The notes under the pieces: model-generated
The model's input: the letters and a program-made list of their open reading frames with translations, nothing else
Databases searched by the model: none
Told to the model about the DNA's origin: nothing
Shown here: in pieces, positions 1 to 36,595 of the stretch
Layout: each line of letters opens with the position of its first letter
Position numbering within the stretch: position 1 is the first letter of the stretch
IMG/VR virus record: IMGVR_UViG_3300045988_098325
DNA length: 36,595 nucleotides
Direction: 5' to 3' (one strand)
Source of the DNA: a virus
Program-made: the position numbers and the translations under genes

Positions 1-201
1 GGGTGCGTAAGACCTTACACAGAGTCTTACATGGTCTTACGTTCGGGCACATGCTCTAAACCATTGGAAACATTGGGCTGACAGGCCAAGGCTTACAAAC
101 TTACGTTCCATTATACATATATATGTTTATATATATATATTAGGGATATATATATAGGGGGCGTAAATGTAAGCCTGCCTGTCAGCCAGAAAAGGCAGGA
201 A
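1..201 (+). repeat. Copy A (5'-truncated by the window edge) of the multi-copy ~274-bp intergenic element
   Basis: Base-by-base comparison shows it is identical to 29988..30188 and 36395..36595. It carries GTAAGAC/GTCTTAC heptads (7..13, 24..30, 34..40) and a TA-rich core flanked by GGCTGACAGG/CCTGTCAGCC (76..187). It ends 3 nt before the ATG at 205. Confidence 0.95.
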
Positions 202-204
202 CAT

Positions 205-900
205 ATGAACAGCATCCGAACATCACTGCACTACCTGCACGTACACTCCACCATCCTCGACGCGATCATCACGAAAAGCGTCATACTCAACACCGGCCAA
301 CATGCACATAACAGGCCAGTCACCGCAGCCACACCCATCAACCTGACAGCGGCTGACCTCAGTGACCAGCTCCACGAGCTCGCACTGCTCCTGTGCAGGG
401 CCGTCGGCCAACACCCACCGAAAGGGCTGCCGGTTCGTGACCTCTACGCCATGCTCGACACCGAGCAGACCGTCACCCGGTTGGACACGCGGCCGGATCG
501 TGACCACATCCGACGTGTCCTCCATTCGGCCACCATGCGCATGCAGTCCATTTGCGAACGCCGGCAGGTCATGCGTTACATCGGCGTCTGCACGCAATGC
601 GGGTACGGCATCTGGGCGGACGAGGACGCGGACATCACCGCCGACACGTACACCTGCGACATGTGCCATGCTACAGGCAGCCTAGCCACGGTGGCCGCGG
701 CGCACCGGCTCAGGCTCATGATGAGCGGCATCACAGGCACCGCCGCCGAACTTGCCACACTCCTGCGCTCATGTGGCTACAATGCGCGACGCAACACGAT
801 CACGCAATGGGGCAAGCGGGGGTTCGTCCACATGGTCGGCCATGACGAGGACGGGGCGCCTGTCTACCGGCTGGCTGACATACTCGTCCGGATGACTTGA
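205..900 (+). CDS. Hypothetical DNA-binding protein (CxxC..CxxC zinc ribbon plus C-terminal MerR/excisionase-like HTH). Possibly a late-gene regulator, judged by its position upstream of HNH/terminase.
   Basis: 231-aa ORF starting immediately after the repeat. Motifs are CTQCG...CDMCH and TAAELATLLRSCGYNARRNTITQWGKRGFV...YRLADIL. The function is inferred only. Confidence 0.7.
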   Translation: MNSIRTSLHYLHVHSTILDAIITKSVILNTGQHAHNRPVTAATPINLTAADLSDQLHELALLLCRAVGQHPPKGLPVRDLYAMLDTEQTVTRLDTRPDRDHIRRVLHSATMRMQSICERRQVMRYIGVCTQCGYGIWADEDADITADTYTCDMCHATGSLATVAAAHRLRLMMSGITGTAAELATLLRSCGYNARRNTITQWGKRGFVHMVGHDEDGAPVYRLADILVRMT

Positions 901-11267: not shown

Positions 11268-14200
11268 ATGGCAATCAAACTCGCTGAGGCATACGTGCAG
11301 ATCGTGCCCAGCATGAAGGGCGTGGGCAACGCCATCGTCTCCGCGTTCGACGGTGCCAGCGGCAGAGCCGGCATCTCAGGCGGCAAGGCCGCCGGCAGCG
11401 GGTTCGCCAGTGGCCTGAAAGCCAAAATGGGCGCGGTCATCGGAGCCGCAAGCGCCATCACCAGCAAGGCGATGGACACCATCGGCTCCAGCATCTCCAG
11501 TGCCGTCAGCCGCGCGGACCAGATGAACAACTTCCCCAAGGTCATGAAGAACTTGGGCTATTCGTCCGAGGACGCGGCCAAGAGCATCAAGAAGATCTCC
11601 GACAGTCTCGACGGCCTGCCCACCACGTCGAGCGCGATGACCGGCATGGTCCAGCAGCTCGCCCCACTCACTTCGAATCTCGACGAGGCCACCACCATCT
11701 CATTGGCGTTCAACAACGCGATGCTCGCTGGCGGGGCCTCGACGATGGAGCAGGAGAACGCCCTAGCGCAGTATACGCAGATGCTCTCCGCGGGCACGGT
11801 GGACATGGCTGCATGGCGGAGCATTCAGGCTGCCATGCCCGGCCAGCTCAACCAGGTCGCTGAAGCGATGATGGGAGCCGGCCACAACGCCAACGACCTG
11901 TACGAGGCCATGAAGGACGGCACCTACAGCTTCGATGACTTCAACAAAGCCATCGTCGACCTCAACGAAAACGGGTTCGGCCAATACGCCTCGTTCGCTC
12001 AGCAGGCCAAGGACGCCACACAGGGCATCGGCACCGCCATCGAGAACGTGAAGAACCGCGTCGCCAAGGCCGTGCAGAAGGTCATCGAAGCGTTCGGCGT
12101 GGAGAACATCGCCGGCGCGATCAACGGGTTCAGCTCGCAGTTCGGCAAAATCGGCGACGCTGCCGCCAGCATGGTCACGTTCACCAAGAACCAGTTCTCA
12201 CTATTGTGGGAACGCGTCAAGGACATCGGGGCCATAGACACCCTCAAGACCGCGTGGGACGGCCTCACCGCGAAACTCTCCAACACTGATTGGGGCAACC
12301 TGCTGCCTAGCGGTGTCTGGAAGCAACTGCGCAATACAGCCGCGTCGGCGCTCGCTGACGTCATGGACCGTGTCAGCCAGCTCATTGGCTGGCTTTCCAA
12401 CGGCATCCAATGGGTGACCGGCTTCGTGCAGTCATTTGCATCCACTGGCGTATTCCAAGCGTGGATAGACGTGTTCGGCGTCGTATTGGACGTGATCAAC
12501 AGCGCCACGGACGTGTTTGGATCAGTCATCGACGCGATCGGGCGGTTGACCGGTGCTGCAGGAGGCGCGCAATCGTTCGGGCAGACGGTTGGTGACGCAT
12601 TCAAAATCATCGCTGACCTGATTAAACCGGTATTGCAGGCACTCGATGATGTGCTTGGCTGGTTCAGCCAGAACCCCGGAATCATCGTCGCCGCGCTGGG
12701 TACCATCGGTGCGGCGTTCGCTGGTGTGAAGGGATATCAGGCGCTCAACAACGGTCTGGTGGCGCTCAGGGGAACGATGGACACTGTCACCGGGGCCGCC
12801 AAGGGCATCAGCAACGGCATCCAGCTCATGATGGATCTGGGCGGTCCGGTGCAAATGGTGAAGAAGCTCGGTTCGAATCTGAACATCGTCTCCACAGCAC
12901 AGCAGACATGGAGCTCCGTGACCAAGGCCGCGACGGCGGTCCAGGGCGCGTTCAACGCCGTCGTCTCGGCCAATCCCATCGGCGCTATCATAACCGCAAT
13001 CGCCGCAGTGGTCGCGGCCCTTGTCTGGTTCTTCACTCAGACAGAGACCGGCCGCAAGGCATGGGCAGCGTTCACACAGTTCCTCACGGACGCGTGGAAC
13101 AAGGTCTGCGAGGTCGGCAAGGCCGTATGGAACGGGCTCGCATCGTTCTTCTCCGGATTGTGGGAGGGTATCAGTTCCGTCGCGCAATCCGTGTGGGGTG
13201 GCATCTCGAGTTTCTTCACCGGTATCTGGGATGGTATGAAATCAGCGTGGGATGCGGTGTGGAATGGGGTCCAAACGGTGTTCGAGGCCGTCTGGGGTTT
13301 CATCCAAGCGTATGTGCAGAACGTCATCATGCCGATCGCGGAGTTCATCAAAAACACGTTCATCGTGGTCGCGGCCGTGTTCGTGACCATCTGGAACGGT
13401 ATCAAGACCGTGTGGGAGACCGTGTGGAATGCGATCGTCGCGTTCTTCACGCCCATCATTCAGGGTATTTCTGACACGATCACGACCGTGTGCACGTTCA
13501 TCTCGGAGACGTGGAACACGGTATGGTCGGCGGTCAGCGAATTTTTCCAGACCGTCTGGCAGGGAATCGTCGCGTTCTTCACGCCGATCATCGATGGCAT
13601 CGCCAACACAATCAGCACGGTCGTCAACGCAATCAAATCCACGTGGGATTCCGTGTGGGGTGCGATATCGAGTTTCTTCCGGAACATCTGGAACGGCATC
13701 GTCGCATTCCTCACGCCGATCATCAACGGGATACGCACCACGATTACGAACGCGGTCAATGCGATACGGTCCACGTGGACGAATGTATGGAGCAGCATCA
13801 GCAGTTTCTTCTCGGGAATCTGGAATGGTATGCGGAACACGGTCGGCAGTGCGGTCGGATTCATCGGCGACAGGGTACGAGGCATCAAAAACACCGTGTT
13901 CGGAGCGCTCAGTGGTGCCGGCGAATGGTTGCGCGGCATCGGCAGGGACCTCATCCAAGGCCTGATCAATGGTATCGGCGACATGTTCGGATGGGTGCGT
14001 GACAAAATCTGCTCGCTCGGTGTCAATATTCTCGGCTGGGCGAAGAGCGTGCTCGGCATCGGCAGCCCGTCGAAGATTTTCGCACAGTATGGCCGGTGGT
14101 TGGATGAGGGTCTCGCCATCGGTATCGATGACGCTGCTGCTCGGGTCGGCAAGGCGATGGACGATATGACCGGCATGGTTGTCGGCAAGGGCCTCGATTT

Positions 14201-15293: not shown

Positions 15294-18200
15294 ATGAGCG
15301 ACCTGCATGTACGGTTCAAGGCATATGACAGTGCCGGGGTGTTCCAAGGGTTCCTGACCCCGAGCTCGTGGTCGGCGAGCGTGCAGCACAATGATGCGGG
15401 CACCCTGTCGATGACCTACCCGCGTGTCGCACTCAATGGTGGTATCCTCCAGCGCGGGTTGGAGCAGGGCCTCGAGATCGGCATGGAGGTCGCCACACAT
15501 GACGCATGGGTGGAACCATACAACTGCCGTTTCCTGCTCGTCTCGCGCTCCCGTGACGCCAAGGACAGCACGGATACGGTCACGCTCAACTGCATGACGT
15601 GGATCTGGTTGACGAAAAAGATCCTCAACCTGAACATGAGTGCGTTGCTTACCGATACCGACAACAAGGGCAAACGCCCATTCTATTCGGCGACATCTGG
15701 CATGATCGTGCGCACGCTGCTCGACGAGAACCGTAAGCGGGGCGGTGCGGCCACCGTCATGCCGGCAGGGTTCAACAGTGCACGCGACACGAACGGTGAC
15801 ACGTGGGCGTACAAGATGACGCTCTACTATGATGCCGGGGTCGACCTGTACACGGTCATCGACAACCTGAGCGCGAACGGCATGTGCGATTGGCGTACCG
15901 ACGGGCGCATGCTCAAAATGTGGAACGCCGATTCGACCGCATTGTGCCGGGATCTGAGCGCCCGTGTGCGCATCCCGTTGGCGACCGGATTGCTGGAATC
16001 CCCAGAGGAGGAGACCATCGAGGGACTCGCCGGCAACATCCTCGTCCGTGGTGACAACGATCTGGTGTTCACGCAGGAGAACAAGACAGCTCCCTCGCCA
16101 TGGGGCAAGTGGGAGCTGTACTCGTCGCAGGGTGGCGTGTCGAACAAGGACACCGCCCAATTGTTGATGCAGACGCAGCTCGCGTCCGCCGCCCGTGTGC
16201 GCGGCCAGTACACGCGCCAGATCCTCACCACGGGCATCGAGCACCTGCCGTTGGTCGACTACCGTCCGGGTGATTGGATCACCGCACCAACCGTCAACCA
16301 TGGCGAAAAAGTGCGGGTGCAGCGCGTCGAACTGTCAAACCGCAATGATGGCGGCGTCAAATGTGCGCTCATGCTCAACGACAGGTTGTATGATGCGCAG
16401 ACCCGACAGGCCAAACGCATCCAGGGCATCACCGGCGGAGCAGTCGCCGGCGGCGCGTCCGGAGCCACACCCGCCCCCGAAAAAGACCATCGCATACCAA
16501 TGGCACCGGCCGGGCTCGTGGTGCAGACCGACGCGTACATCGACGCGAACGGGTACGCGCGCGGCCTCGCCACCGCGCAATGGGCTGAGGTCACGCAGGC
16601 CACCAACCACACCAGCATCGAGATCACCTCATACCGGGTCGAATGGAGGCCAAACATCGCCGGTGAGGCATGGCGCAGCGCTGGCGTGACGACCGACACG
16701 ACGTTGAGCTGGGGCAATCTCGACTGCGGCACCACGATCCAAGTGCGCGTGCGCGCGGTCCCCACCTACAGCGATAAGCTGGGCGACTGGTCGGCGGTGG
16801 CCGTCGTCGATGTCGCACAGGATGTGACGCCGCCGAGCGTCCCGTCCACGCCGGTGCTCGCCAGCGAACTCGGCGTCGTCACCATCCACTGGGACGGGCG
16901 CACCGCCACCGGCACACACATGGAACCGGATTTCGATCATATCGAGGTAGGACGCGGCACCAACCCCAGCAACCTCACCCGTATCGCCGCAGCACAGTCC
17001 GGGGAGGGGGACTATCTCGACACGGCACTCACCGCCGGCGACGAACCCGTCTACGCACTGCGCGCAGTCGACCATGCCGGCAACATGAGCGCCTGGTCGA
17101 CGACTGCTGGAATCACCGTAGCCAGCACTGTCAGCCCCGAGGAGATCAGCCAGATCAAAAATGACCTCAAGGCCAACAACGATGCGCTGGAGACGGCGAA
17201 CCAGACGCTCTCCCAGGCGAAGAAGGATATCCAGGCCAACAGCCAGGTGATAACCAGCGTGAATCAGACGCTCACGCAAACCAATAAAACACTCGAGGAA
17301 ACCAACCAGACGCTCTCCCAGGCGAACAAGGACCTGGCGCAGGCCAAAAATGACATCAAAGCCAACGCCGACAAAGCAAAGGAATCCTACGACAAAGCCA
17401 CCAACGCACAAACCACCGCAGATGGCAAGAACAAGATCATCAAAAGCACGCGCGAACCGGCACACGCCGGACTCGCGACAGGTGACATGTGGTACCAGAC
17501 CAGCCTCGTCACATGGTGGACCGGCCAGCCCAACAACTCACCAAGCGTGCTCTCCGAACGGGTCGATCATGTATACATCTGGGATGGAACACAATTCAAT
17601 GAATACAATTTCGTCGCCAGCAACGTGATCTCCACGAACACAGTGACCGCACCACTGCTCGCCGCTGGCAGCATAATCACCGACAAACTCGCCGCGAACG
17701 CGGTTACCGCCGACAAGATCCTCACAGGAGCCGTCACCACGGACAAACTTGCCGCAAACGCGGTTGTATCGGATAAGATCGCCGCGAACGCGGTCACTGC
17801 AGGAAAAGTCGCCGCAGAAGCCATCTCATCACGAGAGATCAAGGCACTCGCCATCAGTACGGACAAACTCGCCGCGAATGCGGTGACCACCGCGAAGATC
17901 GCGGCGCTCGCCATCACGGCCGACAAGATCGCCGCGAACGCCGTGAACGCCGACAAGATCGCCGCGAATGCGGTGACTGCAGACAAGATCGCGGCGCTCG
18001 CCATCACGGCCGACAAGATCGCCGCGAACGCGATCACCACGGACAAGATCAAGGCCGGCCAGTTCGTCGGCTATGTGTTCACCGGCGCGGTCTACCAATC
18101 CCACACGGAGGACAACAAGGGCTTCAAACTACGAGGCAACTCATTCGACATGTGGGATGCCAGCCAAAACAACACCGTCCACCTCGACGGCAGCGGAGCT

Positions 18201-22326: not shown

Positions 22327-22652
22327 GCGACAATCTCGATAATCTCAACGACCATCCGGCCTACGACGACAGTGACCAGGCGTTGCCCGACAGCATGCCC
22401 ACCCACGAGCCCGCGCCGAACCCGACTCGCGTATGGGTGCGGGCCGCGCTCATACGCGCGCTGAAAACCATGGCACAGGCGGCCATCGGCGTGCTCGGAA
22501 CCGGCGCAGTAGGACTCATGCAAGCCGACTGGGCAAACGTGCTCTCCGTCGCCCTCATGGGCGGCGTATTGAGCCTGCTCACCAGCATCGCCGGAATCCC
22601 CGAGGTGGACGATGGGTCAAGCCTCGCGAGCATCACAGACAGCGCAAACTAG
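22323..22652 (+). CDS. Holin (r1t/LL-H-like)
   Basis: 109 aa, with hydrophobic segments AAIGVLGTGAVGLM and LSVALMGGVLSLLTSIAG. It overlaps the endolysin stop. Confidence 0.7.
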   Translation: MSDNLDNLNDHPAYDDSDQALPDSMPTHEPAPNPTRVWVRAALIRALKTMAQAAIGVLGTGAVGLMQADWANVLSVALMGGVLSLLTSIAGIPEVDDGSSLASITDSAN

Positions 22653-22694
22653 GGAATACCAATGAGTCACTAGTGGATCGCGGTGAATCACGAA

Positions 22695-22950
22695 CTGCCT
22701 TTGCTGGCTGACAGGCAGGCTTACATTTACGCCCCCTATATATATATCCCTAATATATATATATAAACATATATATGTATAATGGAACGTAAGTTTGTAA
22801 GCCTTGGCCTGTCAGCCCAATGTTTCCAATGGTTTAGAGCATGTGCCCGAACGTAAGACTATGTAAGACCTGTGTGGGGTGTGTAAGACCTTACACAGAG
22901 TCTTACATGGTCGTACGTGATTGACGTAAGACCTAGAATTCGTGTTCGCC
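22695..22950 (-). repeat. Copy B, the inverted copy of the multi-copy element, with its 30-bp core flipped relative to its flanks
   Basis: The reverse complement matches copies C and D apart from a few substitutions. The exception is 22870..22899, which has the same plus-strand orientation as in C and D. Confidence 0.95.
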
Positions 22951-22963
22951 GCAGCTGCAATGA

Positions 22964-23015
22964 GCCCCGCCCCACTCGCCAACCATGGTGAGCGGAGCGG
23001 GGCGATTTTTGCGTT
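22964..23015 (+). terminator. Rho-independent terminator of the late/lysis operon
   Basis: A 17-bp imperfect stem (22964..22980 pairing with 22987..23003, 2 mismatches), followed by GATTTTTGCGTTT. Confidence 0.7.
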
Positions 23016-23039
23016 TACGGTGGCGCGCCGTGAGACAAT

Positions 23040-23561
23040 ATGCATATGGAAACCATCGAAAGCGCCATAGCAGTCATCCGCAACTCCGGCCGAATCCTGC
23101 TCACCTGGGACGACGAATGGGACTGCTGGCTGCTGCCCAACCAAACCATCCACGAGCCAGACACCCCAGACCACGCGCTGCGCTCGCTCGCCATCGACTA
23201 CCTGCCATGCATGCCGACGCGACTGTACGACATACCGCCCACGCTCATGGTCGACAGCCACAAACCATGCCCGCAGCATGACGACGCGATCCGCCACTAC
23301 GTGTACACGATTGGGTTTTATGACATCTATCCCGACGCCGATTATAGGTACGAGGACGTTTACAACCATCACCTCATCGACATCGACGACTGGCAGGGCG
23401 AATGCGATTTATACGGCATCGACCATTTCATGTTCGACATCGGCATCGAACCAGACAGGCGCACCTGCACATGGTGGACGATCGACGAGATGCGCGCAGA
23501 CCCGCGCATGCGGGCGGTCAACGGCGACCTAATCGACACGCTCGAACTCATCTATGCCTGA
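23040..23561 (+). CDS. Hypothetical protein in a moron-like position. The N-terminus resembles the start of a Nudix fold, but no Nudix box is seen.
   Basis: 173 aa. It begins AIAVIRNSGRILLTWDDEWDCWLLP, and no GX5EX7REUXEEXGU motif was found. Confidence 0.6.
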   Translation: MHMETIESAIAVIRNSGRILLTWDDEWDCWLLPNQTIHEPDTPDHALRSLAIDYLPCMPTRLYDIPPTLMVDSHKPCPQHDDAIRHYVYTIGFYDIYPDADYRYEDVYNHHLIDIDDWQGECDLYGIDHFMFDIGIEPDRRTCTWWTIDEMRADPRMRAVNGDLIDTLELIYA

Positions 23562-23823
23562 CTGCTGCCAGCGCCGAGCATGGCCGGATAGGCGTCACGC
23601 CAGCCTCCTGGTCGGCGCGCCGCTCCACCCACTTATCCACGCGACAGCCGGCATCCATGTGGCGCGCGTGACTGATCTCATGCGCGAGCACACAACGGCG
23701 CTGCACGTCCGTCAGACGCGAATCCAAGACGATCAGATCCAGACCGGGCGCGTAGAAGCCTTCATAGCCGACCGGCAACGGCTGTTCGGCCACACGCGCC
23801 CAGCGTGACGCCTCAATAAGCAA
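23548..23823 (-). CDS. ImmA/IrrE-family metallopeptidase (short form)
   Basis: HEISH (HEXXH) sits in the context RRCVLAHEISHARH. TTG start; last gene of the leftward immunity operon. Confidence 0.7.
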   Translation of the reverse strand: MLIEASRWARVAEQPLPVGYEGFYAPGLDLIVLDSRLTDVQRRCVLAHEISHARHMDAGCRVDKWVERRADQEAGVTPIRPCSALAAVRHR

Positions 23824-23850
23824 CTCGTTCAGAACAACTCCCGGGACGAA

Positions 23851-24570
23851 TCAGTCGTTGAGATGATCGATGGCGTACTGCGCTTCGGATTCAGTGAACT
23901 GGCCACCGTATTCGCTCATCAGCTGGTCCTTGACCGCGGCCTCGCTCATCTCCATCGTGTCCCGGTACGTCTTCGCCTGTTCCAGGGCGTTCTTGTTGTA
24001 ATCGGCCTTCAGGTGATCGATGGCGTACTGTGCGGCCTCCGCAGGGAACTGGCCGCCGTATTCGCTGGTCAGCTGGTCGTAGATGCCCTGCTTGCTCAGG
24101 TGCATCATATCGGAATACGTTTCCGCCTGACTGAGCGCATTGCGATACTCGGCCGGAACGTTGTTGTCTGTGGATTCAGGCTTTTGCTCGGTGGCGTTCT
24201 GCTCGGCCTCCGTGGTCTTCTCATCCGCGGCCTCCTGTTTCTCCTCCTCGGCCTTCTGCTCTTCAGCCTGGTTCTTCTCCGCGGTGCCCGCGGACTGCGA
24301 CGTCGACGACGACGGCTTGGCTTCCGTCACCGACTCCTTCTTGTCATTGGATCCGCCGGCGCTCGCCGCGATGGCGATGACGACAACGACGATGATCACC
24401 CAGAACCACCACTTTTTCCAGATCGGCTTCTTCCCGTCGCCCTTCGGCGGGGTGGCGGGCGTCGGCTGAGGCATCGGCGGCTGCATTTGCTGCTGCACCG
24501 GAGCCCCAGCAGGCTGGAACTGCTGCGCGGCATTTCCCTGCGACGATGGCATGGTATTCGGATCACTCAT
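23851..24570 (-). CDS. Membrane-anchored protein with two Ltp-like repeats (putative superinfection exclusion)
   Basis: The ATG at 24570 follows GAAGAGGAA. The TM segment is WWFWVIIVVVVIAIAASAGG. The duplicated motif is NAL.QA.TY.D.M..S......QL.SEYGGQF...EAQYAIDHL. Confidence 0.7.
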   Translation of the reverse strand: MSDPNTMPSSQGNAAQQFQPAGAPVQQQMQPPMPQPTPATPPKGDGKKPIWKKWWFWVIIVVVVIAIAASAGGSNDKKESVTEAKPSSSTSQSAGTAEKNQAEEQKAEEEKQEAADEKTTEAEQNATEQKPESTDNNVPAEYRNALSQAETYSDMMHLSKQGIYDQLTSEYGGQFPAEAAQYAIDHLKADYNKNALEQAKTYRDTMEMSEAAVKDQLMSEYGGQFTESEAQYAIDHLND

Positions 24571-24683
24571 GATGATTCCTCTTCTCTTTGGTTCAGTGAC
24601 GCCCCTAACAACCTGCGCCTTGACTTTCCCGGCACCCTTATGAATGCCGGGCCGGCACCGCAACAATACGGCGCCAAAACTTC

Positions 24684-25074
24684 TTACGGCAGATCCTCGT
24701 ATTCGGTCTGCTCACGCTCGATATCACCCTTCTTCGCGGCAATGTCGAATTGATCCATGTGCGACGCGACATACGCAGCCTGCTCATCCGCAGACCACCC
24801 AGAAATGGACTGCGCCATATCGCTGTCGATAAAATGGCCGGCAGCGTCGACGTTGACCTGTGTCTGCCGCATCGCGTTGACGAGTGCGAACACGTCGTTG
24901 CAGCACAGGATTGGGGCGAGTCTGTCGAGCTCGTCGATGGTCCACGGCTTCAGCCCCCTTGATATGTAGTGAGGCGTAGGACTGGGCGCGCCCGATGATC
25001 CTGCCGGCCTCTTCCTGTGCCACACTCTTCGCCTCGGGCGCTTGTCGCACGGAGGGCCGGTTGCTTTGTCGCAT
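24684..25074 (-). pseudogene. XRE/ImmR-like repressor with its reading frame broken at a homopolymer (plus-strand C5 at 24954..24958)
   Basis: ORF 24784..25074 encodes the first HTH helices (SVAQEEAGRIIGRAQSYASLHIKG). ORF 24684..25025 encodes the continuation (LKPWTIDELDRLAPIL...). Removing one G would fuse them into a single protein of about 129 aa. Confidence 0.7.
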
Positions 25075-25109
25075 GCCCCGTGTCGGGGGGTTCCTCCTTT
25101 CTAACCATG

Positions 25110-25222
25110 AGCTAAGTATAGCACATTTAAGCTGTCTTACAGGTATTTCGACACGCCGTGTAGCTCATATGAGTTGACATACCTTAACGGTTGTGCTTTA
25201 CTGTAATCAGCTCAAACGAGCT
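25110..25222. promoter_or_regulatory. Divergent immunity-switch region: rightward promoter plus AGCTC-N4-GAGCT operator-like palindromes
   Basis: The promoter is TTGACA (25174..25179), a 17-nt spacer, then TTTACT (25197..25202). The operators are AGCTCAAACGAGCT (25209..25222), AGCTCATATGAGTT (25162..25175) and the weaker AGCTAAGTATAGCA (25110..25123). Confidence 0.55.
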
Positions 25223-28246: not shown

Positions 28247-29213
28247 CGTACTCGCCGTGCTCAACGCGCAACAGGCAGCGCACACGCCACACATTCCCGA
28301 CACCATGCCAATGGCTGGCGAATGGATGCCGACAACCCCAGCGCCCAGCGTATGGCCGACGATCCGCGAACACATCGTGGACATGGTCACCCACCAGCCG
28401 CGCAGCCTACAGCGCGAAATCGGCCCAAGCGAACTCGGCACACAATGTTTGCACTGCCTCGCCAGAAAACTCACCGGGCACACGACAGAGGAGATTCGCG
28501 ACGTCGCATGGCTGCCATTCATCGGCACCAGCGTCCACGCGCAATTCGAACACATGTTCGGCGCATTGGACGGGTATGAGACCGAGAAAACCGTGCTCGT
28601 CGGCAACCTCACCGACGCGCGCCCCATCACCGGCAGCATCGACCTGTGGGACGAAAAAAACGCGGCGACCTGCGATTGGAAAATCGTCGGAAACAGCACC
28701 CTGGCCGATGTGCGCCGCCACGGCCCCAGCCAACAATACAAAATCCAGGCGTCGCTCTACGGCATCGGCATGAGCCACACCACACCCGTACAAACATCCT
28801 GCATCTACTACCTGCCACGCAACCAGCCCAGCCTGGACGCCGGATGGATCTACGAAACCCCATTCGACCCACGCCCCGGCCAATGGGCACTCGCCAGGGC
28901 ACGCCTCATCCTCACCCTATACGACAGCATCCGCGTCGAATACGGGGACAGCATCGCGGAACAGTGGGTGAACGCGTTCCCCCGCAACACCGAACACTGC
29001 TTCCACTGCCGGGACGAAGCGCAACGCAGAAACCACGCCGACCTCGCCAGCCTGATCGGCACCAAAACCGTGGACGCGGCGGACACGCGGACATTGGCCG
29101 ACAACCTGCCAGCCATGCCACGCGCACTCCTCAACGTCCCACAGGCCGACTACCGGCCACAACCAACCAATAAACCAACCACTGACACAAACCCGAAAGG
29201 ACAACAGTCATGA
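28230..29213 (+). CDS. PD-(D/E)XK nuclease, Cas4/RecB-like exonuclease
   Basis: Motifs IDLWD...CDWK (D...D-x-K) and QQYKIQASLY (QxxxY), with Cys pairs CLHC and CFHC. Confidence 0.75.
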   Translation: MSNPNDVLAVLNAQQAAHTPHIPDTMPMAGEWMPTTPAPSVWPTIREHIVDMVTHQPRSLQREIGPSELGTQCLHCLARKLTGHTTEEIRDVAWLPFIGTSVHAQFEHMFGALDGYETEKTVLVGNLTDARPITGSIDLWDEKNAATCDWKIVGNSTLADVRRHGPSQQYKIQASLYGIGMSHTTPVQTSCIYYLPRNQPSLDAGWIYETPFDPRPGQWALARARLILTLYDSIRVEYGDSIAEQWVNAFPRNTEHCFHCRDEAQRRNHADLASLIGTKTVDAADTRTLADNLPAMPRALLNVPQADYRPQPTNKPTTDTNPKGQQS

Positions 29214-29947
29214 CATGGAACAACCAGTACACACCACAATTCCAGCAGCCACAATACGGGCAGCAGCCACAGCAAGGCTACGCGCCACAGGAGGAGCCAA
29301 CCGCTCCGGCACCCAGCTTCGGCCAGCTCCTCAAAAGCGGAGGCGGCAAAGCCGCGTTCAACAAGGACAGCATGCCCGGCACCACCGTGACCGGCACCGT
29401 CGTGGACATCAAAACCCGGCAGAAAAAAGAGTACGGGACCGGCAAACCCATGTTCTCACAAAAGGGCAATCCGAAATACGAGGCGCTCATCACCGTGCAA
29501 ACCAGCCTGCAGGAGGCGCCCGACGATGACGGACGCCGCACCATCTACATCAACATGTGGGGCGTGCAGCAGGACGCCATCCGCAAAGCCTGCGAAGCAG
29601 CCAAATGCGAAGGCCCCGTGGAGGGTGACACGTTCACCGCGACCTACGTGGGCTTGGGGCAGGCGCAGCCCGGCATGAGCGCGCCGAAACTCTACGAGTA
29701 CCGCATCGACCACAAGCCGCCCGTGTCGTTCACACAGTCCGAAAACGCTCCGCAGCCCACGCCCCGGCAGTCTGCCGGACAGCCGGCACCGCATGTGGAC
29801 GCCATGCAGGTCACCGGCCTGCGCAACATGGGCAAGAGCGATCAGGAGATCTCGCAACTGCTCGGCGTCCCGTCGGACGCGGTCACCCGCATCGCCGGGC
29901 AGGCACGAGTGCAGGGCAGCGAGATGAACGGCGAACCCGAATTCTAG
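29210..29947 (+). CDS. Putative ssDNA-binding-like protein (Q/P-rich N-terminus, OB-like core, HTH-like segment, C-terminal ...NGEPEF)
   Basis: 245 aa. The C-terminal acidic-aromatic tip recalls SSB/gp2.5 tails. The functional call is tentative. The last ~33 nt belong to repeat copy C. Confidence 0.4.
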   Translation: MTWNNQYTPQFQQPQYGQQPQQGYAPQEEPTAPAPSFGQLLKSGGGKAAFNKDSMPGTTVTGTVVDIKTRQKKEYGTGKPMFSQKGNPKYEALITVQTSLQEAPDDDGRRTIYINMWGVQQDAIRKACEAAKCEGPVEGDTFTATYVGLGQAQPGMSAPKLYEYRIDHKPPVSFTQSENAPQPTPRQSAGQPAPHVDAMQVTGLRNMGKSDQEISQLLGVPSDAVTRIAGQARVQGSEMNGEPEF

Positions 29948-30188
29948 GTCTTACGTCAATCACGTACGACCATGTAAGACCTGTGTGGGGTGCGTAAGAC
30001 CTTACACAGAGTCTTACATGGTCTTACGTTCGGGCACATGCTCTAAACCATTGGAAACATTGGGCTGACAGGCCAAGGCTTACAAACTTACGTTCCATTA
30101 TACATATATATGTTTATATATATATATTAGGGATATATATATAGGGGGCGTAAATGTAAGCCTGCCTGTCAGCCAGAAAAGGCAGGAA
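29915..30188 (+). repeat. Copy C, a full-length copy of the multi-copy element
   Basis: 274 bp, with 3 mismatches to copy D. It starts inside the 3' end of 29210..29947 and ends 3 nt before the ATG at 30192. Confidence 0.95.
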
Positions 30189-30191
30189 ACG

Positions 30192-32537
30192 ATGAACTTC
30201 TCCAACTACCACCCCATACCAGTGCAGGGGGTGCCCGCCGCATACGAAGGGATATTCAACCAGCTTGAGCTCACCTTCCAACCGGCGAACGACTCCACAG
30301 TCGTGAACACGCTCCTTGGCCGCCCACTCGCACTGGTCACTGCCCGCCACAGCAAGAACGGGCCGGAGGCACCCGTCATCGCCATCGGATACCAGAAAGC
30401 CATCTGGGAGCTGCGCGAGGGGCATCTGCGCTGGTGCCAGCCGGAACAGCGCCTCTACCGCAGGGACGAGGACGCTGAGGACCATCCGGGGGACCGGTAC
30501 CTGCTCAACAGCTGGCATCCGGTGAAAAGCATCGACGACGAGTACGGCGTCGAATCAAAGAACCAGCAGTCACCCGCATACGTTGCGACGATCCTGCGTG
30601 AGGCGAAACGACTCGAATGGTTCGCGCAGGTCGAACGTGGCATCCGCATCGACCCGTGCGTGTGGGTGCGTCGCGACGGGCACGTCGTCAAGCTCGTCGG
30701 CGAGGAAACGGAGGATCTCGCCGTCACTCAGACGTTCGACCCTGCCGGCATGGGCCGTGAGGCCATCCGTGACGCGGAACGCATCTGCCGGTGGCTGACC
30801 GTGGACGAGAAATCCTACCGGAATCTCGTGCGCATGTTCGCCACTCCCTGGCTGGAACCGTTCAAACAGCTCACCTACGTGCTGTCCGGGCATGGCGGCG
30901 ACGGCAAGTCGCTGGTCATGTCGCAGTGTGTGCTCGGCGTGCTGGGGGTCGGCAAGGTGTTTCCCGCGTTCAACGCGCAGAATTTCTGCGAGACCGGCTC
31001 GTACACCATCAACCGGGAGAGCATGCTGGATGCGATGGACGGCATGGCGTTCGCCTATGACGACGAGGCGGGTGACGTGACGGAGCACATGCTCCCCTCG
31101 TTGCGCGCCATATCCACCGGCACTCAGATGCAGGCGCGTGTCATCGGCGGCAAGTATCGGACGGTCACGCCTTCCGCGACGGTCGTCCTGTGCACGAATC
31201 AGGGGTTCGCCGACAGTACGGAGTCCTCCGACCGGCGCAGGTTCGTGAAGGTCGAGTTCCATGCGAGCACCGGCCGAAGCTATGACGAGTATCACGCGAT
31301 CGAACTGTTCGTGCACAACCATCCTGCTGCATTGTTCGCGCTCTCGTGCGAACTGTGGGAGCAGGGTGATGTGCCGGATCTGGTGAATCTGTCGCCTGCC
31401 CGTCAGATCAGTGACGAGATGTATTGGCTGATCCATGAGATCTGTGTGAACGATGAGCAGTACGGTCAGCCGGTTGCGTCGCGTACCGCGTACCGTGATG
31501 AGTTCCATCGTGCGGTCAGTGATGATGCCATGCAGTTGATGGGGTTGAAGAACTCCACGAGCTGTGTACTTCGTGGCGGTCAGCAGCGTGTGGTGCGTGT
31601 CGCTGATTGGGATCGGTTCGACAAGTATCGGAACGCGGTTATGGAGGCGGACGCTGAGGGCGTGGTGGAGGTGCCATCCCCGCCTTCCCCGATCGACGGG
31701 CCTATTGTCCTGCCGTCCGAGGTTGGGTTCGCCGCGGAGTATGTGCGTGCCGACCAGCGCAAGGTCGCCCGTGATTGGAAGCAGTTGGCTCAGTCGCCGA
31801 ATGTGGATACGAGCCGGCGTCCGACGGATAGTGCCGCGTATGCGGTCGTACCGCATGAAGGGTTTGTGGTCGTGGACATGGACGTGCCGCATGACGGCGG
31901 GGACACGGGGTGGACGGTGTGGAACCGGCAGGTCGGCCTGTATGGGACGCCCGCGTTCCCCACCACGTATCTGGTGGGCACGCCGTCGGGTGGCGTGCAC
32001 GCGTATTACCGTGTGCCGGCGGCAGTCGCCGGACAGCTCAAGAACGCCGCGCACCCGAAGGGCATGCCGGTCGACCTGCGTGTGGACGGCAAGGGCTACG
32101 TGATCGGCGCCGGCTCCCATGTGACCGCCGGCGACTACCGGCTGCTCGACATGCCTGCCGGTGACGTGGTGCCTGAACTGTCGGAGCGCATGTGCCGGTG
32201 GCTGATCGATACACCCGGCTATGTGGAGTCGCATACGCCGATGCTCCCCACCGTGTCCGATGACGGTGCGCCGCGCACGTCCATTGCCAGTCTGATCGCC
32301 ACCACTCCGGGAGCGGGGGATTCGAGCAGGCCGCCGGTGGATATGAGTCCGATACCGGAGGGTTCACGCAACACCGACCTGCACGCATGGGCATACGGGC
32401 GAGCAGCGAACCACCCAGACAATTGGCCGTCCATCAGACTCGACCTGTTCGAACGCGGACGGATCAGCGGCCTGCCCGAATCGGAGTGCGCGACGATCTG
32501 GAACAGCATCATGCGTGAGCTTGGAGGTGCACGATGA
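30192..32537 (+). CDS. Replication protein: D5/P4-type P-loop helicase domain followed by a Prim-Pol (archaeo-eukaryotic primase) domain and PriCT-1
   Basis: Walker A is SGHGGDGKS and Walker B-like is AFAYDDEAGD. Prim-Pol motifs are VVVDMDV, PSGGVHAYY and DLRVDGKGYVIGAGS. PriCT-like is SRNTDLHAWAYG... Confidence 0.8.
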   Translation: MNFSNYHPIPVQGVPAAYEGIFNQLELTFQPANDSTVVNTLLGRPLALVTARHSKNGPEAPVIAIGYQKAIWELREGHLRWCQPEQRLYRRDEDAEDHPGDRYLLNSWHPVKSIDDEYGVESKNQQSPAYVATILREAKRLEWFAQVERGIRIDPCVWVRRDGHVVKLVGEETEDLAVTQTFDPAGMGREAIRDAERICRWLTVDEKSYRNLVRMFATPWLEPFKQLTYVLSGHGGDGKSLVMSQCVLGVLGVGKVFPAFNAQNFCETGSYTINRESMLDAMDGMAFAYDDEAGDVTEHMLPSLRAISTGTQMQARVIGGKYRTVTPSATVVLCTNQGFADSTESSDRRRFVKVEFHASTGRSYDEYHAIELFVHNHPAALFALSCELWEQGDVPDLVNLSPARQISDEMYWLIHEICVNDEQYGQPVASRTAYRDEFHRAVSDDAMQLMGLKNSTSCVLRGGQQRVVRVADWDRFDKYRNAVMEADAEGVVEVPSPPSPIDGPIVLPSEVGFAAEYVRADQRKVARDWKQLAQSPNVDTSRRPTDSAAYAVVPHEGFVVVDMDVPHDGGDTGWTVWNRQVGLYGTPAFPTTYLVGTPSGGVHAYYRVPAAVAGQLKNAAHPKGMPVDLRVDGKGYVIGAGSHVTAGDYRLLDMPAGDVVPELSERMCRWLIDTPGYVESHTPMLPTVSDDGAPRTSIASLIATTPGAGDSSRPPVDMSPIPEGSRNTDLHAWAYGRAANHPDNWPSIRLDLFERGRISGLPESECATIWNSIMRELGGAR

Positions 32538-34747: not shown

Positions 34748-35854
34748 ATGAAATACGTCAGCATGTTCTCTGGCATCGAAGCGGCAACCGTCGCATGGAA
34801 ACAACTCGACTGGCAACCGGTCGCATTCTCGGAAATCGAACCATTCCCATGCGCAGTGCTCAAACACCATTACCCAACCGTCCCCAACCTGGGAGACATG
34901 ACGAAAGTAGATTGGAATGACTACCATCACACAGCCGACATTGTGGTCGGAGGAAGCCCCTGCCAAAGCTTCAGCACCGAAGGACTCAGGAAGGCGTTGG
35001 ACGATCCACGCGGCCAGCTCATGCCAGCATATTTCCGAGCTTGCCAGCAAATTGACCCAGAATGGATCGTCTGGGAAAACGTGCCCGGAGTATTATCCGC
35101 AGATCACGGACGCGCTTTCGGCACACTCCTGCAAATCGTGGCCGAACTCTGGCCTGATGGGGGGGCAGCATGGAGAGTGCTCGACGCTCAATTCCACGGA
35201 GTGGCACAACGCCGCCGCCGTGTGTTCGTTGTCATCAACACTAGAGACTGGCGACGTGCCGCACCGGTACTATTTGAGCGAGAAAGCCTGTGCTGGGATC
35301 ATCCGACGAGCAAAGCAAAAAGGCAAGCCCTTACCGGAAGTGTTGTCGGCGGCGTTGCAGGCGCAGATACAGGCATGGGAGCAGGAAACTGCCTAAACCA
35401 TTTTGACGGTCAGTTGAGCAGGCGCTACTCGGCAGATGGGCCATACCCGACGTTTGCTGGTGGGACGGGAGCAACCGGCGGCAGGAACATAGGCGTGCTC
35501 ACTGATGTGGTACAACTGGTTCGCACCTCGAACACGAATTCCAATGGAGGGCATTTCCCTCAATCGGATGTAATGGACACGTTAGATACGACGGTTTCAA
35601 CTGCGGTGCTGTGCAATGCCGGTGATTCAGCGAACGCCGAAGTCGGCTACGAAGTGCGACGGCTCACCCCACGGGAATGCGAACGGCTCCAGGGCTTCCC
35701 GGACGATTACACGAATGTCGCATTCAACGGGAAACCAGCCTCGGACGCGAACCGTTACCGCGCACTCGGCAACAGCATGGCAGTCCCCGTCATGCGATGG
35801 ATAGGCGAAGGCATCAACCTCGTGGAACAAGCGAAACAGGAAGGAACACTATGA
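34748..35854 (+). CDS. DNA (cytosine-5)-methyltransferase, with no adjacent restriction endonuclease
   Basis: Motifs FSGIE (I), GSPCQSFS (IV), ENV (VI), QRRRRVF (VIII), RRLTPRECERLQGFPDDYT (IX) and GNSMAVPV (X). Confidence 0.9.
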   Translation: MKYVSMFSGIEAATVAWKQLDWQPVAFSEIEPFPCAVLKHHYPTVPNLGDMTKVDWNDYHHTADIVVGGSPCQSFSTEGLRKALDDPRGQLMPAYFRACQQIDPEWIVWENVPGVLSADHGRAFGTLLQIVAELWPDGGAAWRVLDAQFHGVAQRRRRVFVVINTRDWRRAAPVLFERESLCWDHPTSKAKRQALTGSVVGGVAGADTGMGAGNCLNHFDGQLSRRYSADGPYPTFAGGTGATGGRNIGVLTDVVQLVRTSNTNSNGGHFPQSDVMDTLDTTVSTAVLCNAGDSANAEVGYEVRRLTPRECERLQGFPDDYTNVAFNGKPASDANRYRALGNSMAVPVMRWIGEGINLVEQAKQEGTL

Positions 35855-36036
35855 CCGACACGATCAGCGCATACAGGCGCAGCATGATATTGAAATGGCA
35901 TGCGGACGGCTACCGGGTGGACGAGATCGCCCGCCTCATCGATCTCCCGCAACAGGCCGTCATCGACATCATCGACAACGCTGCCCGGCCTGAGGAGCAC
36001 AAGCCGGACATGGGAGAGGACGTGCCATTATGGTGA
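35851..36036 (+). CDS. Small HTH protein (sigma-70 region 4 / LuxR-like)
   Basis: 61 aa: MILKWHADGYRVDEIARLIDLPQQAVIDII. Confidence 0.55.
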   Translation: MTDTISAYRRSMILKWHADGYRVDEIARLIDLPQQAVIDIIDNAARPEEHKPDMGEDVPLW

Positions 36037-36308
36037 ACCACTTTGACTGGCAGAAGCAGGCCGCCTGCGCGAACCCGGACTACGATCCGGAATGGTGGTT
36101 CGCACCCAAGGACTCGCCCGAGGCCACGGCGGCTCAAGCCATCTGCATGTACGACTGTCCCGTATACGAGCAATGCGAACAATACACGCGCGCCGTCGAC
36201 CTGCGGACACCAGGCGGAATCACCGGCATCTGGGCAGGCTGCACCTACCGGGAGCAATGGCGTTCCGCCGGGAAGCAGGAATCAAAACATCAACACGACA
36301 AGGATTGA
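36030..36308 (+). CDS. whiB: WhiB-family transcription factor
   Basis: Four Cys (C13, C40, C43, C49) and a GIWAG turn. Confidence 0.85.
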   Translation: MVNHFDWQKQAACANPDYDPEWWFAPKDSPEATAAQAICMYDCPVYEQCEQYTRAVDLRTPGGITGIWAGCTYREQWRSAGKQESKHQHDKD

Positions 36309-36321
36309 ACAAGTTTTGAAA

Positions 36322-36595
36322 GGCAGCGAGATGAACGGCGAACACGAATTCTAGGTCTTACGTCAATCACGTACGACCATGTAAGACATGTGTTGGGTGC
36401 GTAAGACCTTACACAGAGTCTTACATGGTCTTACGTTCGGGCACATGCTCTAAACCATTGGAAACATTGGGCTGACAGGCCAAGGCTTACAAACTTACGT
36501 TCCATTATACATATATATGTTTATATATATATATTAGGGATATATATATAGGGGGCGTAAATGTAAGCCTGCCTGTCAGCCAGAAAAGGCAGGAA
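36322..36595 (+). repeat. Copy D, a full-length copy of the multi-copy element. Its last 201 nt are identical to window positions 1..201.
   Basis: 274 bp. It begins with a non-coding fossil of the SSB-like gene's 3' end (36322..36354) and runs to the window end. Confidence 0.95.

Follow-up and report, generated by a model that had tools for sequence, protein, structure and literature searches.

A probable iteron-type replication origin upstream of the primase-helicase gene of a Bifidobacterium phage, and its two additional copies

The SF3 initiators SV40 large T antigen and papillomavirus E1 act on inverted pairs of pentamers or hexamers located by an AT-rich tract, which direct the assembly of head-to-head double hexamers. 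Phage P4 requires two separated iteron clusters, ori and crr, and would be a precedent for additional iteron loci acting in cis. The Rep helicases of Staphylococcus aureus pathogenicity islands (SaPIs) carry a winged helix that binds 6–12 penta- or hexanucleotide iterons flanking an AT-rich region, with at least two opposed sites per side (PMC9371898). In P4 alpha and in ORF904 of pRN1, an SF3 helicase is followed by a winged helix; ORF904 was proposed to be an autonomous initiator, but its cognate site was not identified (PMC2777425). Phage SPP1 carries two separated copies of its repeats, oriL and oriR, that are bound by G38P with similar affinity, oriL having an adjacent AT-rich unwinding element (PMC5737612). 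The present analysis concerns the virus record IMGVR_UViG_3300045988_098325 (36,595 nucleotides, the whole of which is called the window), and more precisely an array of GTCTTAC/GTAAGAC heptads within a ~280-bp element located immediately upstream of the gene encoding a 781-aa replication protein. Comparisons of sequences and of a predicted fold indicate that these heptads are probably the iterons of the phage replication origin, recognized by the winged helix of this primase-helicase.

The element copy that adjoins the replication gene, called copy C, and its left neighbour comprise the following features.

29210..29947, plus strand: upstream gene, phrog_1911, with a C-terminal helix-turn-helix (HTH)-like segment and a conserved ...EPEF* end
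29910-30188: copy C of the element, between the stop codon of 29210-29947 and the ATG of 30192-32537
29947..30029: distal iterons of copy C, an array of six GGTCTTACRT decamers
29947-29956 (plus), 29962-29971 (minus, degenerate GGTCGTACGT), 29972-29981 (minus): decamers of copy C
29992-30001 (minus), 30010-30019 (plus), 30020-30029 (plus): decamers of copy C, continued
29962..30029: quasi-palindrome of 68 bp made by the inverted iteron arms, capable of forming a hairpin or a cruciform
29981..30010: asymmetric palindrome centre of 30 bp, CTGTGTGGGGTGCGTAAGACCTTACACAGA, occurring either way round with respect to the other parts of the element
30049..30063, plus strand: spacer motif CATTGG-AAA-CATTGG (CATTGGAAACATTGG in the window), between the distal array and the unwinding region
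30063..30073, plus strand: left bracket arm GGCTGACAGGC of an 11-bp inverted repeat around the AT-rich core
30077..30093, plus strand: proximal iterons left of the core, GGCTTACA and AACTTACGT
30097..30144: TA-rich core, presumed DNA-unwinding element
30150..30162, minus strand: proximal iterons right of the core, in opposite orientation, GTAAA (degenerate) and TGTAAGCC
30164..30174, plus strand: right bracket arm GCCTGTCAGCC

The distal array (29947-30029) reads GGTCTTACGT caatc ACGTACGACC ATGTAAGACC tgtgtggggt GCGTAAGACC ttacacag AGTCTTACAT GGTCTTACGT. An initial annotation, made by a model from the letters of the window, had placed GTCTTAC at 29948, 30011 and 30021, GTAAGAC at 29974 and 29994, and a degenerate GTACGAC at 29964, and all these positions were recovered. 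The spacings of 10, 20 and 10 bp that it gave hold for neighbours of the same orientation, the full series being 16, 10, 20, 17 and 10 bp, and its two 19-bp arms (29962-29980 and 30011-30029) are indeed inverted repeats with a single mismatch (C/A). The CTTAC/GTAAG pentamer occurs 9 times in 29950-30160, as had been counted, for a mononucleotide expectation of 0.36 per 274 bp and a background of ~0.09 per 274 bp outside the elements; GGCTTACA (30077) and TGTAAGCC (30155) do lie on either side of the TA-rich core. The genome-wide count that the annotation had called for gives 21 heptads on both strands, versus 1.46 +/- 1.22 in dinucleotide shuffles. Eighteen of them are located inside element copies, and the three others (15052, 25134 and 34434) compare with a chance expectation of 2.9. 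The isolated heptad of the immunity region, already regarded as weak evidence, is chance-level noise and lies at 25134-25140 instead of 25133-25139. A better description of the repeat unit is the decamer GGTCTTACRT, which is found 21 times with at most one mismatch (2.0 expected), 21/21 inside element copies. The distal decamers are arranged as inverted arms of tandem 10-bp repeats.

Relatives of the locus were gathered via the primase and include three viral contigs (~70% amino acid identity), five Bifidobacterium prophages (~52%), 68 metagenome loci and further contigs obtained by exact-protein look-up. In eight close versions of the array, only 2 of 42 heptad columns are variable versus 19 of 47 other columns by script (Fisher p ~1e-4); the printed alignment read without its misaligned tail gives ~13 of 41 for the non-heptad columns, the Fisher p belonging to the 19/47 count. 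Both variable heptad columns correspond to an alternation between degenerate and consensus bases, and the changes found in close relatives go toward the consensus (GTACGAC to GTAAGAC). In four close relatives (L001, L003, L014 and L015), GGCTTACA/TGTAAGCC become GTCTTACA/CGTAAGAC on both sides of the core, the left proximal iterons being perfect GTCTTAC/TCTTACG with a matching change across the core. The initial annotation held that a lack of conservation in homologous elements of related phages would speak against a binding array; the heptads are conserved there: their columns are near-invariant while the spacers vary, and a CTTAC-type motif recurs at the same place in prophages that encode a ~52% identical primase and whose surrounding DNA is unalignable.

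Every relative for which the upstream region is available shows a common plan. An upstream gene ending in ...E(P)EF* is followed by an array of words in two orientations, a spacer (often GTTGGAATTCCAAC), further words, a TATA-rich core that ends with ATAGGGG, one or two inverted words, a ribosome-binding site (RBS) and the ATG of the primase gene. The word itself differs between lineages. The window lineage, L005, L007 and L017 and the prophages of B. goeldii, B. aerophilum, B. biavatii and B. pullorum have (G)TCTTAC(G) or GCTTACG. GGTAACG is the word of L006 and of B. rousetti, and is also present in the remains of the truncated origin of L084 (GGTAACG/CGTTACC). Another clade has CGTAACC/GGTTACG, and two other groups use TGTGCC and GGGGAC. 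At least five motif classes can be distinguished, and the mode of same-strand spacing is 10 bp both in the pooled data and in 4 of 5 classes. The cultured Bifidobacterium phage BP742P1, whose primase is 29% identical, carries three TGTAGG and three CCTACA around an AT-rich core.

A one-base change is found in concert in many iterons of the left array (CGTAACCG vs CGTAAGCG) when L018 is compared to L021 and L068, which have near-identical origin backbones. The GTTAC sites close to the core do not differ, and the whole has the appearance of an ongoing switch of specificity. Two contigs carry two primase loci each, ~29–38 kb apart (L021/L022 on OBXX01000129.1, 6109-13478 and 35093-42462, and L034/L074 on OAUM01000075.1), which suggests tandem or neighbouring related prophages. 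A weak second cluster of four CTTAC/GTAAG pentamers is located in an intergenic region of the B. biavatii prophage (L009, 3020-3100), ~7 kb upstream of the primase gene, and may be due to chance or be a second binding region. Phased GTCTTAC/GTAAGAC arrays also surround AT-rich DNA in two unrelated viral contigs, L002 (7960-8260) and L004 (840-1020), just 3' of their own primase-helicase genes. L002 has a low G+C content and encodes a DnaG zinc-finger primase and a DUF927/Cch-HTH helicase, and L004 encodes a Toprim primase-helicase fusion. They were found by an exact-word scan and were rejected as homologues, their helicases being dissimilar to the window protein and to each other; they are analogues, and the presence of the same word in the three looks like its convergent use by unrelated initiators.

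The G+C content is 0.40 in 30000-30199 versus ~0.60 for the genome. In each element copy, two CTTAC sites and one or two inverted GTAAG sites surround the ~50-bp TA-rich core (in copy C, CTTAC at 30079 and 30087 on the left, GTAAA at 30150 and GTAAG at 30156 on the right). The 11-bp bracket repeat around the core has a score of 11 versus a shuffle maximum of 8. It was rejected as a family-wide feature, being significant in the lineages of the window, L005, L006 and L021 and not in the others. Motifs related to the spacer motif of the window (GTTGGAATTCCAAC) are found at the same place in relatives of any iteron type (e.g. in the origins of L009, L026, L042 and L023). They are palindromic, and could be bound independently of the iteron type, by a host protein or by a further domain of the initiator.

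Besides the array, two features take part in the proposed recognition.

30192..32537, plus strand: replication protein of 781 aa, with an N-terminal domain, a P-loop DUF5906/P4-family-like ATPase, a predicted winged helix and a C-terminal PrimPol domain
31392..31655, plus strand: predicted winged-helix domain, residues ~401-488, in which residues 426-472 correspond to nt 31467-31607

The word type covaries with a short segment of this protein. Among 38 distinct primases that are 92–94% identical between types, all 9 columns separating the TGTGCC from the GGGGAC types are located in residues 426-472, and none in residues 1-425, whose coding sequence is nearer the origin, or in the PrimPol half. 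This analysis of fixed differences within the 92–94% clade was preferred to column-wise mutual information, which is dominated by phylogeny and variable regions, and to a nearest-neighbour test, which is dominated by near-identical sequences. In residues 426-472, L006 also clusters with L010, a distant member that likewise has GGTAACG, and not with its close relative L005, and the primases of the window and of L084, whose origin words differ, are 85% identical overall and only 56% identical in this segment. The 181 family members carry 34 distinct sequences of residues 451-467, 33 of which map to a single iteron class; for example, GLKNSTS..GGQQR is paired with CTTAC, GLTNSSTR...SRQR with GGTAACG, GLENARSR..GQPR with TGTGCC and GLENSKTK..QCR with GGGGAC. 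The type-specific residues would lie, in the predicted winged helix, within beta2, the wing and beta3. Although the upstream HTH gene is contiguous with the array, none of its 138 variable columns separates the types; therefore, adjacency alone does not create the signal.

The initial annotation had listed several candidate binders. One of them, the HTH-like segment of the upstream protein (29210-29947), shows no covariation with the motif type and was rejected. Another, the N-terminal region of 30192-32537, belongs to the protein that covariation makes the likely binder, but the determinant would be a different part of it, the predicted winged helix (~401-488). These data suggest that the specificity of word reading lies in residues 426-472 of the primase-helicase.

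The winged helix was predicted by AlphaFold2 (AF2) from an alignment containing 18 homologues, with a predicted local distance difference test (pLDDT) score of 85–92 for residues ~401-488, and was reproduced in a second run on residues 195-500. Its predicted topology is helix - beta1 - helix - helix - beta2 - wing - beta3 - helix, and the top Foldseek matches in PDB are mostly winged-helix DNA binders (PadR, LmrR, MarR-type, the Bacillus replication terminator protein RTP, and Orc1/Cdc6). According to this model, it is placed directly after the ATPase and before PrimPol. The latter is recognized by Pfam (Prim-Pol, E 2.3e-13, residues 525-658), the whole protein matches primase/helicase families of PHROG, and the ATPase motifs GHGGDGKS, AYDDE and VLCTN can be read in its sequence. 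In cultured Bifidobacterium phages, only ~29% identical proteins were found.

Taken as a whole, the initiation process could be viewed as follows: the winged helix of each protomer would bind one iteron, the 10-bp phasing would set the protomers on one face of the DNA and favour their cooperative oligomerization, and the opposed arms, like the opposed sites around the TA-rich core, would load two oppositely oriented helicase rings. The core would then melt and the C-terminal PrimPol domain would make the first primers.

Several observations weigh against this model. The helicase fold is unconfirmed, as residues 195-400 have a pLDDT <50 in the AF2 model, and searches of PDB with the sequence and with a profile of the replication protein gave no match. 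DUF5906 is found with E 1.2e-3 in the window protein and matches in 8 of 8 relatives (best E 4.6e-5) but stays below the gathering score, and TIGR01613 (P4 family) reaches E 9.6e-4 and 18 bits for a cut-off of 108.7; membership of the P4/SF3 family is thus weakly supported. The Foldseek scores of the winged helix are low (best E 9.5e-3, TM 0.36–0.46). One wing, GLVNGTTRALGKQKRV, goes with GCTTACG+GTTACG in L021 and with GGTTACG in L080, words that differ by one base; therefore, the code is not strictly one-to-one. The cumulative GC skew has a local minimum near 30.0 kb that is swamped by a monotonic, transcription-like trend and gives no clear origin signal. Most of the comparators are metagenome assemblies, in which repeats that are 98–99% identical can be collapsed or mis-joined. 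Lastly, a very stable hairpin right after a stop codon makes a terminator or a structural role possible.

The element is also present elsewhere in the window. A repeat search found it at 1-210, 22695-22951 (inverted), 29910-30188 and 36317-36595, which had led to the description of four copies, A to D. Bases 1-201 of the window are identical to bases 36395-36595, and three independent ENA assemblies (L081-L083; 36,374–36,378 bp), which are permuted versions of the window genome, cross the join of the window ends without break in the order whiB, element, gene of 231 aa. The window is a circularly closed or permuted genome of ~36.39 kb, and copies A and D are a single copy, which brings the number to three. 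The identical ends span exactly the mismatch-free stretch common to copies C and D/A, and the apparent terminal repeat of the record could come from an overlap in the assembly and not from a physical redundancy of the termini. The two additional copies are described below.

22695..22951, minus strand: copy B, whole element, between the end of the holin gene (22652) and an intrinsic terminator
22853, 22863, 22883, 22900, 22910 (degenerate), 22926: heptads of copy B
36317..36595, plus strand: copy D, left main part of the third copy, running on into 1-210 over the circular junction
36355, 36371 (degenerate), 36381, 36401, 36418, 36428: heptads of copy D
1..210, plus strand: copy A, right part of the third copy, ending at the RBS and ATG (205) of the gene of 231 aa

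The three copies are 98–99% identical and all lie at the boundaries of gene modules. Copy B is found at the same junctions in L001 and L003 but is absent from L088, in which ~150 bp and the same terminator separate the holin gene from an integrase gene. This canonical intrinsic terminator, GCCCCGCCCCACTCGC...GTGAGCGGAGCGGGGC followed by TTTTT, is located just past copy B (window 22962-23010) and is conserved in L003 and L088. Copy D/A is absent from L084-L086, whose primases are 70–85% identical and in which whiB overlaps the gene of 231 aa. The insertion of D/A parted these two genes and swapped the last residues of WhiB (...AGKQESKHQHDKD* vs ...AGKRGREM*; window 36255-36320 vs L084 6380-6415), and ~50 nt of the left D junction (36268-36316) have no counterpart in locus C or in the empty site. 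In prophages with 10-kb flanks, there is a single array, upstream of the primase gene. Copies B and D carry a fossil of the end of the upstream gene (GGCGAACACGAATTCTAG, the ...EHEF* remnant) and the primase RBS, the last 22–38 nt of 29210-29947 having been copied with the origin. Because B and D carry fragments of the genes flanking C, copy C appears to be ancestral, and B and D/A to be later duplications in the window lineage.

The copies group by genome and not by locus. Copy B of the window is 98.7% identical to its copy C but 90–93% identical to the B copies of L003 and L001, the B copy of L003 is 97.5% identical to the C copy of L015, and in L081 the C and D copies are exactly identical whereas those of the window differ. 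The copies thus evolve in concert, which suggests that they are kept matched to one initiator; gene conversion would hold the extra copies near-identical to C. As for the 30-bp centre, it is unflipped in copies C and D of the window, in L013, in L003-C and in L001-B, and flipped in copy B of the window, L003-B, L014-C and L015-C. Only the centre inverts, since the markers of the arms (ACGTACGAC, the side of the stop codon) stay in place. In the window and in L003, the two multi-copy genomes seen, it has the same absolute orientation in all copies, despite the inversion of copy B; possible causes are conversion between copies in direct register, recombination between the arms and template switching. 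In the C-type copy of L003 (1-35), one arm holds three tandem ACGTAAGACT units and the opposite arm two: units of 10 bp are gained and lost by the array.

Among the explanations that compete with the iteron origin, one views the array as a structural palindrome, i.e., a terminator or attenuator hairpin or a cruciform closing the upstream operon, combined with a TA-rich promoter in a cassette placed at module boundaries, the heptads being incidental. The RNA fold of the palindrome (a DNA fold was also run) is a 68-nt hairpin of -48.9 kcal/mol (z -7.4) that begins 15 nt after the stop codon, strong hairpins are found in the same stretch in many relatives, the core contains a match to a sigma-70-like promoter (TATACA-18-TATATT at 30099-30128), and the three copies do lie at module boundaries. 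This explanation is nevertheless improbable. The hairpin has no T-run and a scan for intrinsic terminators found none in 29700-30400, while a separate canonical terminator follows copy B; L008, L009, L012 and L033 keep the repeated motif without any significant hairpin (z above -2). A stem would tolerate compensatory changes, yet the heptad bases are near-invariant and the bases between them vary, and conservation extends to heptads that are not part of the stem (29948 outside it, 29994 in the loop). Neither the 10-bp tandem periodicity nor the covariation with a protein segment would be explained. The hairpin is taken to be a consequence of opposed iterons, because four relatives lack a significant one, it has no T-run, the arms of L003-C are unequal (2 vs 3 repeats) and substitutions spare the word and not the pairing; it may have a secondary role as a terminator or a cruciform.

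The initial annotation had left the choice between iterons, operators and recombinase arm sites. The comparative evidence supports iterons. Operators of another factor (the 231-aa protein 205-900, WhiB, the HTH protein 35677-36036 or the HTH of 29210-29947), which would co-regulate three downstream genes or modules, would fit with copies located upstream of different genes or modules with a common RBS-proximal segment, and with the several small DNA-binding proteins encoded nearby; but copy B has no downstream gene in its own orientation, relatives have only the copy upstream of the primase gene, it is the winged helix of the primase and not the upstream HTH gene that covaries with the word, and in L084 both WhiB and the 231-aa gene are present without change, its truncated origin having another word, GGTAACG/CGTTACC. 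A role as operators thus has little likelihood. Even less likely is the view of the ~280-bp element as a mobile element, similar to non-autonomous miniature inverted-repeat transposable elements (MITEs), or as recombinase arm sites, the copies being insertions. The 98–99% identity of the three copies, the presence/absence polymorphism of B and D/A among relatives and the invertible centre would fit with it. Nevertheless, no terminal inverted repeats were found, nor any target-site duplication at the junctions of B or D/A compared to empty sites, and there is no evidence for arm sites and no integrase or transposase among the window open reading frames (ORFs) examined. Moreover, the extra copies carry fragments of genes of locus C (...EHEF*, primase RBS), which implies a recombinational duplication and not a transposition, and the orthologous position upstream of the primase gene is occupied in every relative, including those with other motifs.

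If the element is an iteron origin, its extra copies could be either additional firing origins or cis-acting iteron clusters like crr of P4 or oriR of SPP1. It is conceivable, although rather unlikely, that all three homogenized copies function in one replication-control system of a temperate-looking phage that has lost its former integrase. In one version, all three copies would fire, making a multi-origin chromosome with one inverted origin. In the other version, the extra copies would be cis clusters that pair with the true origin, for a crr-like activation or a handcuffing-type control of the copy number of an episomal prophage. In both, the flip of the 30-bp centre would be a by-product, or a switch, of initiator-driven processing of the cruciform or hairpin.

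The genome is that of a siphovirus-like Bifidobacterium phage, and the primase relatives include prophages in five Bifidobacterium species. Its left side encodes terminase, portal, capsid, tape measure, amidase endolysin and holin, and its right side an Ltp-type exclusion lipoprotein, a Cro/BetR-like HTH protein, Ant, RusA, an exonuclease, a dCTP deaminase, a methylase and WhiB; the exonuclease gene is located upstream of copy C. The 70%-related L088 encodes a tyrosine integrase between the holin/terminator and the repressor region (L088 2400-4400). In the window, 22650-25200 contains copy B, an ORF of 173 aa (23040-23561; no family match), the gene of the Ltp-type superinfection-exclusion lipoprotein (23851-24666, minus strand) and a minus-strand ORF of 113 aa. 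The phage could be a derivative that has become lytic, or a prophage maintained as an episome. The gene of a tail protein (1268 aa) carries in-frame tandem repeats, with 30/60-nt periods coding for ...DKIAANAV...-like units and a 21-nt heptad-like repeat, and the tape-measure gene carries 132-nt in-frame tandem repeats (window 17160-18065 and 13120-13830 cover the tail and tape-measure repeats). Rfam gave 0 matches in the window at the gathering score, with only eukaryotic miRNA hairpins below threshold over the AT-rich loop, and a tRNA scan found nothing. The element has no match in GenBank phages by blastn, and no description of such an origin was found in the searchable literature.

These data would locate the origin, and the probable recognition module, of a widespread family of Bifidobacterium phages and prophages from human and animal gut. 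They provide a natural specificity series of at least five words, each with a distinct beta2-wing-beta3 in proteins that are otherwise up to 94% identical, which is a test bed for the reading of DNA by the wing of winged helices. Such a series is also a source of orthogonal origin/initiator pairs for vectors of Bifidobacterium, a genus that is hard to engineer. The triplicated origin could show how small phage genomes gain and keep extra origin copies.

Compared to the systems presented above, the element shares with SaPI origins short (5–7 nt) iterons in two opposed sets around an AT-rich region, a location adjoining the initiator gene, a specificity that diversifies between relatives and, as proposed here from sequence and structure prediction, the recognition of iterons by a winged helix attached to the helicase. 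However, the helicase is DUF5906/P4-family-like and not of the DUF927 + Cch-HTH type of SaPI/SCCmec-type Reps (BLASTP of the window protein against the DUF927 + HTH_56 helicase of L002 found no similarity), the origin precedes the gene, both in the window and in every relative, whereas SaPI origins are downstream, and the internal winged helix followed by PrimPol, the separate distal 80-bp palindromic array and the three origin copies distinguish it further. Because it has no similarity to DUF927/Cch and its origin is upstream, the replication protein is outside the SaPI Rep family. Like P4 alpha, it would combine a primase, a P4-family/SF3-like helicase and a post-helicase winged helix in one polypeptide, but P4 has an N-terminal DnaG-type primase whereas PrimPol is C-terminal here; furthermore, the extra loci are complete duplicates of the origin, including the AT-rich core. 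The modules of ORF904 of pRN1, a PrimPol, a P-loop helicase and a winged helix, are also those predicted here, but its PrimPol is N-terminal instead of the order ATPase - winged helix - PrimPol, and the site is proposed here from covariation.

SPP1 likewise carries separated copies of repeats that bind an initiator (such binding being deduced here) in one phage genome. However, G38P does not belong to the helicase-primases, the sequences of the boxes show no relation, and the window has three copies that are 98–99% identical, one of them inverted. SV40 and papillomaviruses are eukaryotic viruses whose origin-binding domain has an unrelated fold, and the SF3 membership of the window protein is not firmly established. 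The element is ordinary in kind, as a probable iteron origin located beside its initiator gene; what is unusual is that it is triplicated and evolves in concert.

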